A model generated the notes under the pieces. That model saw only the letters and a program-made list of their open reading frames with translations. It searched no databases and was not told the origin of the DNA. Position numbers and translations under genes: made by a program. Of a stretch of DNA of 64,000 nt, positions 11,801-45,498 are shown in pieces. The DNA lies in the NCBI GenBank assembly GCA_963766465.1, contig CAVXZT010000014.1, positions 464,370-528,369 on the forward strand, given 5' to 3'. Source of the stretch: an uncultured Actinomycetota bacterium (GTDB taxonomy: Bacteria > Actinomycetota > Actinomycetes > Mycobacteriales > Mycobacteriaceae). Position 1 is the first letter of the stretch, and the number at the start of each line of letters is the position of its first letter.

Positions 11801-13403
11801 CGTTCGTAAGTCCTTGCGCAGGATCTTGCCTGACGCGGACTTCGGGATCGCCTCGATGAACTCCACCTGGCGGACCTTCTTGTACGGCGCGACCTGACCG
11901 GCGACGAACTCCATCACCTCGTCGCGCTCAGGTCTGCCTCAGACTGCTTGACCACGAAAGCCTTTGGCACCTCTTCGCCTTCGGCGTCGACAACGCCGAC
12001 CACCGCGGCGTCGGCAATTGCCGGATGGCTCAGCAGCAGGGCCTCCAGTTCGGCGGGCGGCACCTGGTAGCCCTTGTACTTGATCAGTTCCTTGAGCCGG
12101 TCGACGATGTAGACGCAGCCGTTGGCGTCGACCTGGGCGAGGTCGCCGGTGTGCAACCAGCCGTCGTCGTCGACCGTCTCCTTGGTGGCCGATTCGTTGT
12201 TGAGATAGCCCGCCATCACGTTGGGCCCCTCGAACCAGAGTTCGCCGGTTGTCGCTGAGACCCTCTGCGGGGACATCGATCTCGTCACCGGTCTCGGGGT
12301 TGATGATCTTGGACGCCGCGTTGGACACCGTCCACCCGACGGAACTCAGTGGGGCGGCGTGCCCATATTCTGCTGCGCCGCCGTCGAATGGGGTGATGTG
12401 GCTGACCGGGCTCAGCTCGCTCATCCCGTAGCCCTGGACGACACGGCAGCCCAACCGATCGGCGACCGCGTGTCCGAGATCTGCGTCCAACGGGGCGGCG
12501 CCGGACATGACGACGTTCAGCGACGCCAGGTCGTAGTCGTCGATCAGCGGATGCTTGGCCAGCGCAACGGCGACCGGCGGCGCGATGAACGCGATCGTGC
12601 ACTTGTGGTTCGCGATGTTGTCGAGGAACTCGCCGAGATCGAAGCTCCGCATGATGACCAGCCGGGCCCGCGCGTGCAGAGCGGCGTTGAGCAACACCGT
12701 CATTCCGTAGATGTGGAAGAACGGCAGCACGGCGAGGACGACGTCGTCGGCGACCATCCCGTGCAGCGGCCGGATCTGCGCGACGTTGGCCACCAGGTTG
12801 CGGTGGGTCAGCATCACGCCCTTGGGGTTGCCGGTGGTGCCGGAGCTGTACGGCAACGCCGCGAGATGCGACGACGGGGCGAAGCTGACGTCGGGCGCGG
12901 GCAGGCCCTGCGCCATCAGGTCGGCGGCATTGGGATGACCGGTCGCGTCCTGGCCCTCGCCGTCGAGCACCACCAGGTCGGCATCGGCCAGCCCGACGGC
13001 CGCGGCCGCCTTCTTTGGCCTGCGCCAGCAGCGGTGTGACGGTGACCAGCATCTTGGCGTTCGAATCGGTCAGCTGCTTGGCGATGTCTTTGGCGGTGAA
13101 CAGCGCGTTGATGGTGGTGGCCGTCGCACCCGAGCGCAGGATGCCGTGGAAGGCGACCGCGAATCCCGAACTGTTCGGCGACAGCAGGCCCACGACATCG
13201 CCGACACCGATGCCGCGGCCGGCCAGCGCACCGGCGAACGCGTCGATGCGGTCGATCATCTCGCGGTAGGAGGTCTGTCTGCCGGACTTCGCGTCGACCA
13301 GCGCGACCCGGTCGAGGTCGGCGTCGTCGATGTCGCCGAACAGGAAGTCGTAGACGCTCGTGGACGGGATATCGACTTCGGGGAAGGGGCTCGCGAAACT
13401 CAT
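11795..13403 (-). CDS. 4-coumarate-CoA ligase-like acyl-CoA synthetase (ANL family), frameshifts near 13020, 12260 and 11920
   Basis: [58 protein letters not shown]. Confidence 0.92.
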
Positions 13404-13436
13404 GGCCTCTGATCGAACCATGGCCGCCGTCGCCGG

Positions 13437-17191: not shown

Positions 17192-17851
17192 TCAACGCAA
17201 TATCGTTGCGATGATCCCGGCCAGATAGCCCAGCCGCGCCACCTCGGACGGGCGGAACTCTGGCCCGCCAGGCCGGCCCAGCACAAGAGCTGTGCGATGG
17301 TCGCCGAGCGGCGCGGCCGCCAGCGTGGTGTCCATGTCGCGCCACACCTGCGGCACCCAGCCTGCGGTACCGTCGAGCGCTGCGGCGTGGTCGAGGGGGA
17401 GCCACGGCGTCTCCGCCGCCTGCGTTTCGGGGGCTCCCGGACTGCCGACGATTCGTTGCGGGCGGGACTCGGTCAACTTCACGACAGTGCACCAGCCGAC
17501 GCGCAGCACGTGGGGGGCCTCGTCGACAAGCACCTGCATCTGCTTGTGTTTCCCGTCGGCCGCCGCGACGCGATCGATGAGCTCCAGCTCCCGGTGCGCC
17601 TCGAGCAGCCCGGTGTGCGGGCGGATGGCATCGACATAGACACCGTTGAGCTTTTCGGCCGCGGTGATCAGCATGTCGGGCATCGCGCCATGCGGCAGCT
17701 CGACCACCAGATCGTCGATCGCATAGCCCACGCCACGCTCGACGACGTCGAGGGACAGGATATCGGCGCCCACCGACCCAAGCGCCACGGCCAGCGAGCC
17801 GAGGCTGCCCGGTCGATCCTCTAGCTGGACACGCAGCAGATACGAAGGCAC
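17192..17851 (-). CDS. ACT domain-containing protein
   Basis: PSYLLRVQLEDRPGSLGSLAVALGSVGADILSLDVV. Usual divergent neighbour of gatC in mycobacteria. Confidence 0.88.
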   Translation of the reverse strand: MPSYLLRVQLEDRPGSLGSLAVALGSVGADILSLDVVERGVGYAIDDLVVELPHGAMPDMLITAAEKLNGVYVDAIRPHTGLLEAHRELELIDRVAAADGKHKQMQVLVDEAPHVLRVGWCTVVKLTESRPQRIVGSPGAPETQAAETPWLPLDHAAALDGTAGWVPQVWRDMDTTLAAAPLGDHRTALVLGRPGGPEFRPSEVARLGYLAGIIATILR

Positions 17852-17926
17852 GCGCAACACTGTTTCACAGCGCCACCGGCTCAGCATTCCGGGCGAGAGG
17901 GCGCGCAGGCGCGGCGCCGGACTTGA

Positions 17927-19823
17927 CCGGGAATTTCCCGTGCCCAAACCTCGTGGTTCATGCCCTGTTCTAGCCCATTCCGGCTGTCGCGGGGCGTGGC
18001 CCGGCGCTGAATGCTGCCGCGTTGCGATGTGGCGGGCGGGACGATCGGTGGGTCCGGGTGTCAGTGGTCAGCCCTACGGTGTGGATGTGCAGAGGCGTAG
18101 TCGCTTTCGCATCGAACCGACAACGGCGCCGAGCTGGAGCCGTTGAGTGAGCGCAATCCTCGTGCGCGTAAGCGTCCGAAGGGGGCACCTACCCATGTGC
18201 GATCGTGGCCGTTGCGTCCGAGTGCGGTGCAGTGCCGAGATATTCGGACGCGGTTCTTCACCGGCACAAGGGTGTACAACGCGGTGCTCGGGGAGTTCCT
18301 CGCGCGCAGCCACGCAGTGAAGTCCGATCCAGCATGGGAGATCGCTTGTCAGATGCCGCGCCGCAAGCCGGCGCAGCGGAAGGCCCGCCAGGCGGCATTC
18401 CGTCTGGTGGAGCAAACACACTGCTTTAGCGTGGAGGGTGCCCAATCGTTCGCATCCGCGCTTCGCAAGTCATGGGTGCGCGAGCATCTGCCCGCGCAAG
18501 AGGCGCAGAACCTGGGTGCGCGCGCTTTCGACGCGGTCAACAGTTGCACCTGGCGCGCAGGGGCAAGCCCCGGTTCAAGCCAGTGGCGCGTGGGTTGCGT
18601 TCAATTTCAGTCAAAGATGGCCGCGGCGCACTACGCCCGTTCGTGGATCGGAACGGTCGACTGGTCGGGCTGCAGTGGGGCGCAGGTTTCGTGATCCCGA
18701 TCGCTGCAGCGGCCAAATCAGGGCGTCGCGGTAAGGAACAGCTAGTCGAGCTGGCTGAGATCGAAGCACTGATCGCAGGCGGGCAACGTGTTGTTCACGC
18801 GGATCGTGCGCACGGTGATCGGCGGTCGCGACACCTACCGCATGCAACTCGTCATCGACGGGCATCCGACCCGCAGGCACTCAGTTGGCGACGGGCGGGT
18901 GTCATTCGACCTGGGACCGTCGAACATTGCAGTGGCTGTCGCGCGCAGCGACGGACGTGGACGGGCTGGGTGCAGCCGTTGGCTGATCGCATCGGTTTGG
19001 ACACCGCCCAATTGCGGCGCGCTCAGCGGCAGTTGGACCGCCAGCACCGCGCCGGCTCACCCGGCTGTTTCCACCCCAATGGCACTCACAAGACCGGTGG
19101 CTGCACCTGGCGGCGCTCCCGCGGTGCGGAACGCACCAAGTCGCGGGTGTCCGAGTTGCATCGCCGGTTGGCTGGGCACCGTAAGACGCTGCACGGCGCA
19201 CTGGCCAATCGATTGTTCGCCCACGGCGCCGACATGGCGTGCGAGAAGCTGGATTACATCGCATGGCAGAAGAACTTCCCGCGCAGTGTGCGGGACCGGG
19301 CACCGGGGATGCTCGTAGAGACGGTTCGTCGCAAGGCTGCAAGTGCCGGCGGCGACGCTCTCTACGAGTTCAACCCCAACACCACGGCTCTGTCTCAAAC
19401 CTGCCTGTGCGGGGATCGCACGAAAAAGCCGCTCTCCCAACGGATTCACCGCTGCGGGTGCGGAATCAAAGAACATCGGGACCTGTTCTCCGCCTACCTC
19501 GGGCTGCACGTCCGAGCCAGCGGCGATGGTCTCGATCGGCTGGACCTGGAGGCAGCCAACACCGGCTGGCTCCACCGTCAGGACATCGACGCGTTGCCGA
19601 GGCCCAGCCGCCCAACAGCACTCAACCGGCGAGGCCGCAGACACCCGCCTATGCGGAGGTCCGTGGCGCGCATCAAGGCCCGACGTAAAGCCAGGGCTGT
19701 GAAGCGACAGAGCGGGTCGGCACGAACTTCCACCACCAATCGGCCCACGGCGCTGCCGCATGAGCAACGAGACAGCCGCACGGCAGATGGTATCCCGGTC
19801 ATTCATGGTCGGGAGGATGTCAA
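17927..19823 (+). mobile_element. IS200/IS605-family element carrying tnpB only (IS1341-like, non-autonomous); left end provisional
   Basis: Right end TCCCGGTC-ATTCAT-GGTCGGGA hairpin followed by GGATGTCAA (TCAA 19820-19823). tnpB inside, no tnpA, no target duplication. Left flank ends TTGA/TTGAC at 17923-17927. Confidence 0.8.
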
Positions 19824-19860
19824 TAGGCTTTCCACTCGTGTCGCAGATCTCCCGAGATGA
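18143..19860 (+). CDS. tnpB: RNA-guided endonuclease TnpB, long type (~570 aa when three single-base indels near 18545, 18785 and 18955 are corrected)
   Basis: N-terminus PLRPS..Q...RF...[15 protein letters not shown], Ruv[10 protein letters not shown], RuvC-II ACEKLD, Zn ribbon SQTCLCG...HRCGCG, RuvC-III HRDLFSA, tail [12 protein letters not shown]. Possible upstream leaderless start at GTG 18087. Confidence 0.88.
19640..19843 (+). ncRNA. Predicted TnpB right-end guide RNA (reRNA/omegaRNA): scaffold overlapping the tnpB 3' end plus a flank-derived guide
   Basis: Inferred from the established TnpB architecture. Terminal hairpin and TCAA are seen; guide would begin at 19824 (TAGGCTTTCCACTCGTGTCG). 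5' boundary is a guess. Confidence 0.55.
19824..19837 (+). promoter_or_regulatory. -10 box of a probable leaderless gatC promoter
   Basis: TAGGCT-N8-GTG, the same spacing seen at serA (36410-36424). No Shine-Dalgarno. Confidence 0.7.
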
Positions 19861-20137
19861 GGTAGCCCACCTCGCCCGACTGGCCCGGCTCGCGCTGACC
19901 GATGAAGAGCTGGACAGCTACGCGGGCCAGCTCGACGCCATCCTCGAGCACGTCAGCCAGATCCAGGGTGTCGACGTCACCGGCGTCGAACCCACGGGCA
20001 ATCCGCTGAAGGACGTCAACGTGTTCCGCAGCGACGTCGTCGAGCCGTGCCTGACCCAGGAGGAGGCGCTGGCCCAGGCGCCCAAGGCGGTCGACGGCCG
20101 GTTCGCCGTCCCGCGGATTCTGGGGGAGGCCGAATGA
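19838..20137 (+). CDS. gatC: Asp/Glu-tRNA amidotransferase subunit C
   Basis: [20 protein letters not shown]...FAVPRILGE. Confidence 0.96.
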
Positions 20138-21619
20138 GCACCGAGCTCATCCGGCTCGACGCGGCCACGCTGGGGGCCAAGATCGCCGCCAAGGAGGTGT
20201 CGTCGACCGAGGCGACGCGGGCGTGCCTGGATCAGATCGCCGAGACCGACGACAAATACCACGCGTTTCTGCACGTGGCGGAGGAGAAGGCGCTGGCCGA
20301 GGCGGCCCGCGTAGACGCGGCCGTTGCGGCGGGGGAGTCGCTGCCGTCGCCGCTGGCCGGCGTGCCGCTGGCGCTCAAGGACGTGTTCACCACCACCGAC
20401 ATGCCGACTACCTGCGGATCGAAGATCCTCGAGGGGTGGACGTCGCCGTACGACGCCACCGTCACCGCGCGGCTGCGAGCGGCGGGCATCCCGATCCTTG
20501 GCAAGACGAACATGGACGAGTTCGCGATGGGCAGCTCCACCGAGAACTCGGCGTACGGTCCGACCCGCAACCCGTGGAACGTCGACCGCGTGCCGGGTGG
20601 TTCGGGCGGCGGCAGCGCGGCGGCGCTGGCCGCATTCCAGGCGCCGCTGGCCATCGGATCCGACACCGGCGGCTCGATTCGCCAGCCCGCCGCGTTGACG
20701 GCGACGGTTGGCGTGAAGCCCACGTACGGCACGGTGTCGCGGTACGGGCTGATCGCCTGCGCGTCATCGCTGGACCAGGGTGGCCCGTGCGCACGCACCG
20801 TGCTCGACACCGCGCTGCTGCATCAGGTGATCGCCGGGCACGACCCGAAGGACTCCACCTCGGTCGAGGCCAAGGTGCCCGACGTGGTCGCCGCGGCCAG
20901 GGCAGGAGCGTCCGGTGATCTCAAGGGCGTGCGGATCGGCGTGGTCAAGCAGTTGCGCGGCGACGGCTATCAGGCCGGGGTGCTGACGTCGTTCAACGCC
21001 GCGGTCGAGCAGCTCACCGACGCTGGGCGCCGAGGTCAGCGAGGTCGACTGCCCGCACTTCGACTTCTCGCTGCCTGCGTACTACCTGATCCTGCCGTCG
21101 GAGGTGTCGTCGAACCTGGCGCGCTTCGACGCGATGCGCTACGGACTGCGGGTGGGCGATGACGGCACGCACAGCGCCGAGGAAGTGATGGCACTGACCC
21201 GCGCCGCGGGATTCGGCCCAGAAGTCAAGCGCCGCATCATGATTGGCACATACGCGCTGTCCGCGGGCTACTACGACGCCTATTACAACCAGGCGCAAAA
21301 GGTCCGCACGCTGATCGCGCGCGACCTCGACGAGGCCTACAAGAACGTCGACGTGCTGATCTCGCCCGCCACCCCGACCACCGCGTTCCCGCTGGGGGAG
21401 AAGGTCGACGACCCGCTGGCGATGTACCTGTTCGACCTGTGCACGCTGCCGCTGAACCTGGCCGGGCACTGCGGAATGTCGGTGCCGTCGGGCCTGTCGC
21501 CGGACGACAATCTGCCCGTCGGCCTGCAGATCATGGCGCCTGCGCTGGCCGACGACCGGCTCTACCGGGTCGGCGCCGCCTACGAAGCTGCACGAGGTCC
21601 GCTGCCAACGGCGGTCTGA
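20134..21619 (+). CDS. gatA: Asp/Glu-tRNA amidotransferase subunit A, one indel near 21025
   Basis: Amidase signature [40 protein letters not shown]. Confidence 0.96.
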
Positions 21620-43032: not shown

Positions 43033-43092
43033 CAAACCGTTTCGAGCAGGTGTTCAGCTGCCGTGCCCGCGTGTTTTGGTAGTGCTACGGGA

Positions 43093-44678
43093 TCACATCT
43101 TCTTCTGTTTCTTCAGCTCCGTCGCGCCCTGATCGTCTGGCGCTCCTACGCTCCCGTTGCCTGCCGTCTTGCTGGCGCCGGCAGAATCGGTCCTTTCGTC
43201 GCCACGCTTCGGCGACGCCGTCGCAGCGCCCTTGGTGGTTGACGGGTCGGCCGCATCGGGGGTCGTGGCGCCGCTCGCGTTCCCCGAAGGGGTGGACGTG
43301 GCCGACCCCGTCGAGTCGGGCTCGTCCTTGGAGGCGGCGGCATCGTTATCCTGTTGCGTCGCTGCTGATTTACGGTCCGTGACGACTGTGCCGGCATCCG
43401 GTGCAGACGTGGTCCCCGACTTGGCGTCGACGTCAACCGGTGCGGAGCGGTCAACCGTGACCGCACGGCGTCTGGCCGTTGCAAGAGCGGCGTAGTCGGC
43501 CGGTGGTGCCGCTGAGACGAGGGCGAAGGACTGCGGGGCGCGCTGCGCCGCCATGGCTGCGGTCACGGCGCCCTCGGGTCCCACGACCCGACCTATCGCG
43601 TCGACCACACCGGAGATCACGGCGACCTTCGCGTTGGCGAGACCTTTGACCACGCGCACCCCCGCGTCGATCAATCGGTTGATGACCTGAACCGTGACAT
43701 CCACGGCGGCGGAGAACAATTGAGCCCCTGCCCGGATCACGCGTTCCGTCGTGTTGATGATCGCGCGCACGAATTCTACGGCCGCGTCCACGAGCCGGCG
43801 TTCCGGTGGCTCCGGCAGTTGACCACCGGCGAAGTCTGCGATGACCTTCGCCGCCAACTTGGGCGTCCAGTCGCTGTAGAAGAAGCCGAAGTTCTTCGAG
43901 ATGTCCAGGTCGCCGCTGGATGTGTCGCGGGTCGAGTAGATGAACATCGGGCGTCGAAGGACCCCTTCGCCCCGGCCGCATACATCTGTTCTATGAAGTC
44001 CTCCGGGTTCATCGTGGCCCGCCCGGCGTTGAACAGCGAGACGACCACACCGCCGACGACAGTGGCCGACGGATCGGCCGTCTTGATTGCCGTGTAGCCC
44101 GTTTGCAGCATTCGCGTGTAGGCCACCGGGTCGACGGGATTCCAGAAGTTGATGCCGTTGGGTTCGTTCCACACCTCGTACGCCGAGATCTTGCCCTGGT
44201 AGCGATCTGCCGCCGCGCCGGCGAACGTCGCGAATACGTCCGGGTCGGGGTGTCCGCTGAGATAGCGGTTGCTGGCCCACAGTGGCGTGGAATTGAGCAC
44301 GGCCAGCACTCCCATATTGCGCGCCGCAGCGGCGTTGACCATTCGGTCAACGTTCGCCCAGTTGTATCGATTCGCATTGAACGGTTGAACGCCTGCCTAG
44401 GGGATGACGATGCGAACGTTTTGCACGCCCATCGCCTGCAGCGTGTCGAGGGTCCTGTCGACGTCAGCCTGCGACCGGTTGTACAGGTCGGAGTCGGCGC
44501 TGCCAATTGTTGTCGGCGCCTCAATGATGCCCGCCGTTTGAATGAATTCGCGTGCCGAGGGTCTTGGCGAGACCATCTGGTCCTGGCCCGCGGCAGCGCC
44601 AACAACAGCGGCGGCTACCGCGGCGATAACCAGGCGACTTGCCACGACGCGGAGCGTCTTGCGGCCGAATGCTGTCAC
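43093..44678 (-). pseudogene. Secreted clan GH-A (GH5/GH39-like) glycoside hydrolase with low-complexity tail, disrupted
   Basis: Signal peptide, QAMGVQNVRI, YEVWNEPN. In-frame TAG at 44397-44399 where Trp is expected; FDA joined out of frame to PMFIYSTRD near 43950, with no HPY or TEYG segment. Confidence 0.75.
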
Positions 44679-44796
44679 GGCGACCTCGATTTCAGCGGCC
44701 CCGAGCGTGCCACCATGGATCAGCAAAATTGACGCTAGCCCTAATTATTGGCGGCCGCGACGCATTGACGGATTCGAATGGCCCGCGGCCGGGGGG

Positions 44797-45498
44797 TTAC
44801 AACCTGCGGGTGATGGCGTCGGCCGCAGCCAAAAGGTCGGCCGCCCACCGGGGGCCGGGTCGGCGTCCCATCCGGTCGATCGGTCCGGACACCGACACCG
44901 CCGCGATCACCGCGCCTGTGCCGTCGCGCACCGGCGCCGAGACGCTGGCCACACCGGGTTCACGCTCGGCGGCGCTCTGTGCCCACCCACGCTTGCGCAC
45001 CTCGGCAAGTGCGCGATCGGTGAACATCGCCGCGGGCAGCACCGCCTGTTGCGTCGCGGCATCCGCGTGAGCCAGCAACACCTTGGCGCCCGACCCGGCC
45101 GTCATGGGAAGCTGAGCGCCGACGGGCACCGTATCCCGAAGTCCCGCAGGCGGTTCCAGCGCGGCAATGCAGATCCTCGACGTACCTTCGCGGCGGTAAA
45201 GCTGAACGCTCTCGCCGGTGATCTCTCGTAGCCGGGGCAATACCACTGCACCGGCGGCCAGCAACGGGTCGTTGACCTGCCCGGCCAATTCGGTCAGCGC
45301 CGGACCAAGTCGCCACATGCCATCCCCGTTGCGGCTCAGCAGCCGATGCACTTCAAGACCCGCGGCCAGTCGGTGCGCGGTGGCGCGCGGTAGGCCGGTG
45401 CGCTCGCAAAGCTCAGCCAGCCCGCACGGCGCGTCGGCCACCGCGCGCAGGACACCCACCGCTTTGTCGAGCACGCCGATGCCGCTATCCTGTCTCAT
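44797..45498 (-). CDS. IclR family regulator (Rv2989/LtbR-like)
   Basis: GIGVLDKAVGVL, TGLPRATAHRL HTH, GSGAKVLLA, ASVSAPV. Divergent from leuC. Confidence 0.94.
   Translation of the reverse strand: MRQDSGIGVLDKAVGVLRAVADAPCGLAELCERTGLPRATAHRLAAGLEVHRLLSRNGDGMWRLGPALTELAGQVNDPLLAAGAVVLPRLREITGESVQLYRREGTSRICIAALEPPAGLRDTVPVGAQLPMTAGSGAKVLLAHADAATQQAVLPAAMFTDRALAEVRKRGWAQSAAEREPGVASVSAPVRDGTGAVIAAVSVSGPIDRMGRRPGPRWAADLLAAADAITRRL

Follow-up and report, generated by a model that had tools for sequence, protein, structure and literature searches.

Members of the IS200/IS605 family of insertion sequences such as ISDra2, IS608 and the Geobacillus elements (Meers et al., 10.1101/2023.03.14.532601) encode a Y1 TnpA transposase, as do the full-length relatives of the element considered here, and as a general rule for the family the guide corresponds to the DNA flanking the right end (10.1101/2023.03.14.532601). 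Elements of the family that carry a TnpB homing nuclease resemble the present one in their RuvC triad and zinc ribbon, their 5-nt TAM, the absence of a target duplication, a right end that closes with TCAA, a structured and conserved 3' region, and a guide that here too would be the flanking DNA. Compared with the model TnpB enzymes, the TnpB of this lineage is some 150 aa longer and falls below the curated cut-offs of the corresponding profiles; compared with the model IS200/IS605 elements, the copy at hand has no tnpA and its tnpB frame is interrupted.

Insertions in or beside promoters offer a second comparison, as here too only a few bases part a mobile element from the core promoter of a host gene that is evidently functional. 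The element differs from those that create hybrid promoters in supplying no new -35 or -10 (consensus scan), and the host promoter differs from others struck by insertions in being a leaderless one of the -10-only kind, which is expected to tolerate an exchange of the DNA upstream of it. A third comparison is with the TldR proteins, which Wiegand et al. are said to have described in 2024 as nuclease-dead, TnpB-like, RNA-guided repressors. The likeness is that of a TnpB-type gene with a predicted guide over a host -10 box and start codon. Unlike a TldR, however, the gene retains its RuvC residues and its frame is interrupted, GTCAA and not a TAM stands before the resident target, the guide is the plain insertion flank and has not been retargeted, and the locus is not conserved in relatives; neither RuvC loss nor a TAM-flanked target in a host promoter, the marks of a TldR-type system, is found.

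The locus is an ordinary IS200/IS605 insertion, not a new mechanism. The explanation that fits best, with a probability of about 0.72 as a whole, is that positions 17928-19823 of the window (the whole stretch of 64,000 nt that was analysed) are a tnpA-deleted derivative of an IS200/IS605-family insertion sequence, from a lineage in mycobacteria whose TnpB is long and whose Y1 tnpA points away from tnpB. The element inserted 3' of a TTGAC adjoining the TAGGCT hexamer of the leaderless gatCA operon, without target duplication; tnpA has since been lost from it, and gatC would still be transcribed from its own -10-driven promoter.

Ends and family of the element

About 1.9 kb with TnpB-like coding capacity lies between an ACT-domain gene and gatC, and the 1,896 bp from 17928 to 19823 were delimited within it as an IS200/IS605-family element by comparison with related copies; a DNA search recovered related elements from 12 of 200 genomes of the genus. 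At the left, the mutual similarity of two copies from one genome (L036 and L047) begins directly after GATGAC, and their first ~80 nt, like those of L035, L037 and L046, share homology with 17928-18010, the left end (LE; plus strand, as are all features below except the ACT-domain gene), which opens with a palindrome, CGGGAATTTCCCG, recognized by eye only. The pentamer immediately 5' of the LE, at 17923-17927, is the TAM, TTGAC. Among six copies compared it reads TTGAC in three (the window, L035 and L037), ATGAC in two (L036 and L047) and CTGAC in one (L046), and the uninterrupted loci of relatives hold the motif at the same position. The arrangement, an LE lying 3' of a short TAM without target-site duplication or terminal inverted repeats, is that of IS200/IS605 insertions.

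The right end (RE) of the window copy, ...GGAGGATGTCAA, terminates at 19823, the endpoint shared by 13 related copies, whose similarity to the window stops at the equivalent base and gives way to unrelated flanks. These copies finish in ...GGAGGACGTCAA, with TCGA in a single exception, and TCAA is the terminus in 13 of the 14 copies when the window (19820-19823) is included; the terminus common to the 13 related copies is GACGTCAA, and divergence sets in beyond it. In the reverse comparison, the gatC loci of relatives can be aligned to the window only from 19821-19824 onward. Judged by the agreement of these alignments, 19823/19824 is the true boundary of the element. Subterminal hairpins at the two ends (at the left the palindrome just named) and a conserved terminal tetranucleotide at the right, also traits of the family, are present. 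What has been defined in this way is a set of ends, a TAM (NTGAC, mostly TTGAC) and a conserved 3' RNA region for a long and poorly modelled mycobacterial TnpB lineage.

In the full-length relatives L036 and L047 a protein of 125 aa is encoded between the LE and tnpB, in the opposite orientation, and this TnpA matches Pfam Y1_Tnp at 122.6 bits (cut-off 23) and NCBIfam transpos_IS200 at 117.8 bits. The window copy has no Y1 tnpA after its LE, where the full-length relatives carry one. A protein search and the Pfam model, both of which were run over the whole genome (95.5% complete, such that a tnpA could sit in the missing part), found no Y1 transposase, and control genomes gave matches. Set against the full-length copies, the absence of a Y1 TnpA is thus read as a loss in the window copy and not as a mismatch of family.

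TnpB and its reading frame

The tnpB gene occupies 18081-19763, as located by three-frame translations, alignment to four intact copies, and the NCBIfam and Pfam models. Its intact relatives encode proteins of 552-562 aa and form a long, divergent lineage (~555 aa). The C-terminal part of the window gene matches NCBIfam guided_TnpB (E 6.6e-15), and the relatives' proteins match the same model over positions 5-384 of 389 (E 9.5e-19), with 67.9 bits against a cut-off of 100; the Pfam TNB domain scores 24.9-25.8 bits against a cut-off of 26.3. A profile search of the PDB returned one weak match (8iaz_A, E 0.0026), and a single-sequence search of the PDB returned none. Five intact relatives share the motifs SFDLGP, ACEKLDY, C..C/C.C and RDLFSA without variation, and the D-E-D residues of RuvC and the CxxC motifs of the zinc ribbon are also found in the frame-corrected translation of the window, their assignment having been made by eye from the known order of TnpB motifs and not by structure.

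Nucleotide alignment to the four intact copies shows that the frame of the window copy is not uninterrupted: 4-5 single-base indels separate it from them, namely an ambiguous one at ~18126, a -1 at 18537, a +1 in a G run at 18777, a -1 at 18957, and a -1 at ~19756 by which the stop codon is lost and the frame continues into gatC. Once corrected for frame, the window gene contains zero stop codons, and its dN/dS against the intact copies (0.21-0.24) is no higher than that among the intact copies themselves (0.21-0.31), so that any inactivation would be recent.

How these indels are to be read depends on the surrounding DNA. When 67 kb from the closest complete relative were set beside the window, frame switches appeared in ligA, gatA, pfkA, gatB and several more genes in the part from ~5.9 to 28.5 kb, and no broken gene from 28.9 to 58.4 kb. 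Since the genome has no second gatC locus, the breaks in the neighbouring genes must be assembly errors; four of the five neighbouring conserved genes examined are known to be essential. Over 7,851 aligned bases these five genes hold 13 insertions and 1 deletion as out-of-frame single-base indels. Some 23 kb of the contig have roughly one single-base indel per 600 nt, and pseudogene calls in it are therefore unsafe without reads. In a stretch so rich in single-base indels, the tnpB frameshifts too could be erroneous, in part or altogether, and the statement that tnpB is clearly a pseudogene was dropped because ligA, gatA, pfkA and gatB are frame-broken too. It was restored in part by a difference in the indel spectrum: against 3-4 deletions, tnpB shows a single insertion (p = 0.006-0.019 by Fisher's test against its neighbours), and the probability of at least three deletions in it is 0.0014 at the point estimate of the deletion-error rate and 0.08 at the upper 95% bound of that rate. 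By this contrast the odds lean, by a modest measure, towards a tnpB that is truly broken, and the gene is probably, not certainly, a pseudogene.

The gatC promoter and the uninterrupted locus

To the left of the element lies the divergent ACT-domain gene (Rv3013-like; Pfam ACT) at 17195-17851 on the minus strand, with a presumed GTG start at 17851; tblastn with the G024 ortholog covered 17195-17908 in a single frame. Relatives keep the N-terminal coding sequence of this gene and an upstream CACTGT..CACAG block. The ACT-gatC arrangement corresponds to the M. tuberculosis gene order Rv3013/gatC. To the right, directly beyond the RE, stands the hexamer TAGGCT (19824-19829), taken to be the -10 box of a leaderless gatC promoter on grounds of conservation and of transcription start sites at the start codon in two mycobacteria. 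An 8-nt spacer (19830-19837) separates it from gatC, which begins with GTG at 19838, is the only gatC in the genome, and extends to 20137 (99 aa; Pfam GatC 81.5 bits). It overlaps gatA (20134-21619) by ATGA, and near 21020 one extra base, in all likelihood an error of the assembly, interrupts the gatA frame.

The pattern TAGGCT-N8-GTG is present in 22 of 24 sampled members of the genus, the two others having a 7-nt spacing and TAGTCT, respectively, and TAGGCT itself in 73 of the 80 nearest loci. Across the 24 members the information content is ~0.1-0.7 bit per position upstream (~0.3), rises to 1.06 at the base before the hexamer and to 1.75 bit across TAGGCT, is low in the spacer, and reaches its maximum at C-GTG-TC. 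Conservation in the wider genus thus ends at the base adjoining the hexamer, and the nearest clade keeps only NTGAC there. In published maps (Shell et al., 2015; PMC4633059, supplements) the gatC of M. smegmatis (MSMEG_2364) is leaderless at its annotated GTG, and a TSS coincides with position 1 of M. tuberculosis Rv3012c. The signature of a leaderless, -10-only promoter, a TANNNT hexamer near the start codon and no Shine-Dalgarno sequence, is found here, with TSS evidence from these two species.

Ranked by GatC, the closest genomes are those of soil Mycobacterium, and many are bins from long-read metagenomes. The host is itself a soil Mycobacterium. When window positions 17700-17927 are joined to 19824-19950, the product is collinear from end to end with the uninterrupted ACT-gatC loci of relatives, and the junction, ...TGAC|TAGGCT, matches those of L061, L065, L066, L062, L064 and L068, with zero bases duplicated or lost, an agreement well beyond what is expected by chance. 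Directly before the hexamer, NTGAC occurs in 56 of the 80 nearest loci (GTGAC in 29, TTGAC in 16, ATGAC in 9 and CTGAC in 2). By these counts the gatC promoter of the nearest clade natively presents the insertion motif of the element beside its putative -10 box.

Much of what the sequence-only reading had claimed of this junction has stood. It had TCAA end at 19823 and TAGGCT begin at 19824, eight nucleotides before the GTG, with the right end of the insertion sequence flush against the -10 box of gatC, and the positions are correct and the abutment is borne out by the termini of 13 copies, the conservation of the hexamer and the joined flanks. The leaderless start that it assumed agrees with the TSSs mapped to the annotated gatC starts of the two mycobacteria (PMC4633059), and the gatC TSS in these measured species is not one unrelated to TAGGCT, the outcome that it had named as telling against it. 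Its account of an insertion that leaves the hexamer and start intact while replacing all DNA upstream, with tnpB and the omega-RNA region oriented into gatCA, also holds, and the retrieval of the ACT-gatC region from relatives, which it had proposed as a check, yielded the uninterrupted loci collinear with the joined flanks. Its claim about the -10 box failed. Joining TTGA to TAGGCT was supposed to recreate an extended -10, TGATAGGCT, but the TAM comprises five bases, and the junction TTGAC|TAGGCT sets the TG one position off the canonical TGn. An extended -10 was accordingly rejected as a candidate, the TG lying farther from the hexamer than TGn both in the reconstructed site and in the NTGAC|TAGGCT of relatives.

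The insertion leaves the promoter intact from the hexamer through the 8-nt spacer to the start codon, and displaces TTGAC and all other upstream DNA by 1.9 kb. Since positions upstream are unconserved across the wider genus, their replacement is probably tolerated, and the insertion probably lies at a position tolerable to selection, sparing as it does the whole conserved core of what appears to be a -10-driven leaderless promoter. It might not be neutral if NTGAC, present in 56 of 80 relatives, contributes to promoter function. The locus offers a clean natural case of an IS200/IS605 insertion whose TAM adjoined a core promoter element, and so a natural promoter-truncation experiment, in which the sole copy of an essential operon, gatCA, tolerates the exchange of all DNA upstream of its -10 hexamer. 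Such tolerance agrees with the idea that leaderless promoters of mycobacteria are in many cases driven by the -10 alone.

The omega-RNA region, its guide and the question of homing

The last ~230 nt of the element, a conserved 3' region that includes the RE and is predicted to be an omega-RNA scaffold (19594-19823), show 75% mean column identity in a 14-copy alignment. The consensus fold over the same 14 copies has 47 pairs, and compensatory changes, which extend to the terminal hairpin, are seen at 8. In the window copy this hairpin (19794-19813), which is followed by a terminal GTCAA, still folds. A scan of 17800-20200 against Rfam gave no match at E <= 1. In any omega-RNA issuing from the RE, the guide would be the flanking DNA over its first 16-20 nt. 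By the IS200/IS605 rule the predicted guide, and the target in an allele free of the element, is the 20-nt RE flank at 19824-19843, TAGGCTTTCCACTCGTGTCG, which would extend from the -10 box to codon 2 of gatC. The genome has this 20-mer a single time, preceded by GTCAA and not by a TAM, and the guide would match only those IS-free alleles that have TTGAC beside TAGGCT.

That the guide spans the -10 box and start was a further claim of the earlier reading, and it stands in so far as the predicted guide matches the right flank; it is no peculiarity of this site, the correspondence being generic to every element of the family. The claim that in an IS-free allele the TAM would abut the 20-nt flank is upheld, as relatives show the exact arrangement. 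The strong homing or retention set-up that was built upon these points is not, in a genome without a Y1 transposase, whose only copy of the target lacks a TAM and whose tnpB has 4-5 indels (assembly error being possible). Such a set-up would require an intact TnpB together with a TnpA by which empty sites are made. Without a Y1 transposase there is no excision, and no vacant site arises for the guide RNA to find. A survey of species-representative genomes with an exact and a degenerate pattern for the family's RE against TAGGCT-N8-GTG produced no second case, its single match, in Alloyangia, being unrelated.

The most serious competitor nevertheless starts from this arrangement. On this reading a whole and functional TnpB would work with its omega-RNA, the frameshifts would be errors of assembly, and an IS-free allele (TTGAC + TAGGCTTTCC...) would be cut at an essential promoter and start, cutting that would enforce retention or homing because error-prone repair would be lethal. 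Several observations agree with it: indel errors are frequent locally and interrupt genes that the living cell must have intact, the dN/dS values indicate that purifying selection shaped the window copy, the RuvC D/E/D residues and zinc-ribbon cysteines persist in the frame-corrected translation, the omega-RNA-like RE and its hairpin are conserved, and the TAM-target arrangement exists in relatives. Against these stand the indels of tnpB, which are mostly deletions where local errors are insertions in 13 of 14 cases (p = 0.006-0.019), and the genome, which has no TAM-bearing target and no Y1 transposase, so that there is no empty donor site and nothing that needs homing. Nor does the position speak for it: the guide equals the flank in every insertion of the family, which hence gives no evidence of selection for the site, TAGGCT is absent from the junction in all 12 of the other copies whose right flank can be read, and no second case is found among species-representative genomes. 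An active nuclease at this locus is accordingly unlikely. The insertion has probably decayed and lost its activity, and on the combined evidence of transposase, target and frame the homing or retention circuit is most likely no longer working, the element being a fixed and largely inert passenger.

Possible effects on gatCA expression

Somewhat less favoured still is a contribution of the element to the expression of gatCA, whether by read-through from the promoter of tnpB or of the omega-RNA or by an RE that serves as part of a hybrid promoter and replaces the displaced TGAC. The element and gatCA share a strand, no terminator-like site occurs on the plus strand between tnpB and gatC, NTGAC is kept in 56 of 80 relatives, so that sequence adjacent to the hexamer may be needed, and the terminal TCAA retains two of the four bases of TGAC. 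A consensus scan of 17800-20000, which includes the right end, found no sigma-70-like -35/-10 pair, however, and a read-through leader would be without a usable Shine-Dalgarno sequence, the candidate GGGAGGA ending 20 nt before the GTG. The wider genus, moreover, has no upstream conservation, which implies that a -10-only promoter suffices; gatC is probably transcribed from its own promoter, and a role of the element in it is improbable.

It would be a considerable surprise if the position were no accident at all, that is, if an excised allele were cut and error-prone repair proved lethal in NHEJ-proficient mycobacteria, such that only copies restored by recombination survive and the element, with its guide over the -10 box and start codon of a single-copy essential operon, is exceptionally difficult to lose, or if the omega-RNA and a TnpB remnant tuned the expression of gatCAB and with it mistranslation. 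Least credible of all is an assembly artefact, whether a chimera or a variant of some minor strain that entered the consensus of a metagenome-assembled genome, for although the contig region is of low quality, completeness is 95.5% with contamination of 4.4%, and the nearest relatives are long-read soil MAGs, so that the source genome may be one too, both junctions are base-precise ends of the element (TAM then LE; RE finishing in TCAA) and the flanks are collinear with relatives, nothing lost or duplicated, a fit that a misjoin would not yield. Polymorphism of the population for the insertion is the most that may be expected. Elsewhere in the genome the lineage is represented by one other copy, which is truncated, and there are some ten other TnpB genes, all of canonical, non-cognate types.

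Sequences flanking the insertion

The -10 hexamer of gatC is directly preceded by NTGAC in 56 of the 80 gatC loci from the nearest relatives (L061-L140), and by the same motif in only a minority of a wider sample of the genus. The TG dinucleotide of this motif lies one position off that of a canonical extended -10 element, and in the window the insertion has displaced the NTGAC copy (17923-17927) by 1.9 kb from the hexamer. On the other side of the intergenic region, just upstream of the predicted start of the divergently oriented ACT-domain gene (17851, minus strand), lies a partially palindromic block, CACTGT(T/C)(G/T)CACAG (17853-17872), that is conserved in nearly all members of the genus. 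This block would be either the leaderless promoter of the ACT-domain gene itself, with an AACAGT-like -10, or an operator.

Related elements and other TnpB genes

Decayed copies of the same lineage are found at two further loci, one in another genome (L035, contig C16 of G129), where tnpA carries an internal deletion, and one in the source genome (L002, contig C8), where similarity ends past TnpB residue ~380. The source genome also encodes approximately ten additional TnpB proteins of the canonical type (L141-L150; contigs C1, C6, C7, C8, C10, C13 and C14), with guided_TnpB scores of up to 243 bits, and several of these genes are intact. A Y1 transposase is absent from this genome, and these additional genes are presumably parts of IS607-type or solo elements.

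Assembly quality around the element

Single-base indels, predominantly insertions, are crowded into positions ~5,900-28,500 at ~1.7 per kb, breaking the frames of ligA (three indels), gatA (one), pfkA (two) and gatB (four); the gene at 11804-13406 carries four and further genes are also affected. Syntenic genes compared over 28.9-58.4 kb of the window contain zero such indels. The closest relatives are long-read soil MAGs. The indel-dense stretch is almost certainly a poor-quality part of the assembly, and calling any pseudogene within it requires the reads.

Elsewhere, at 43053-44798, the window holds ~1.7 kb more DNA than the closest complete relative; the ORFs within this segment lack a Pfam match, and it splits the match to a 174-codon ORF.
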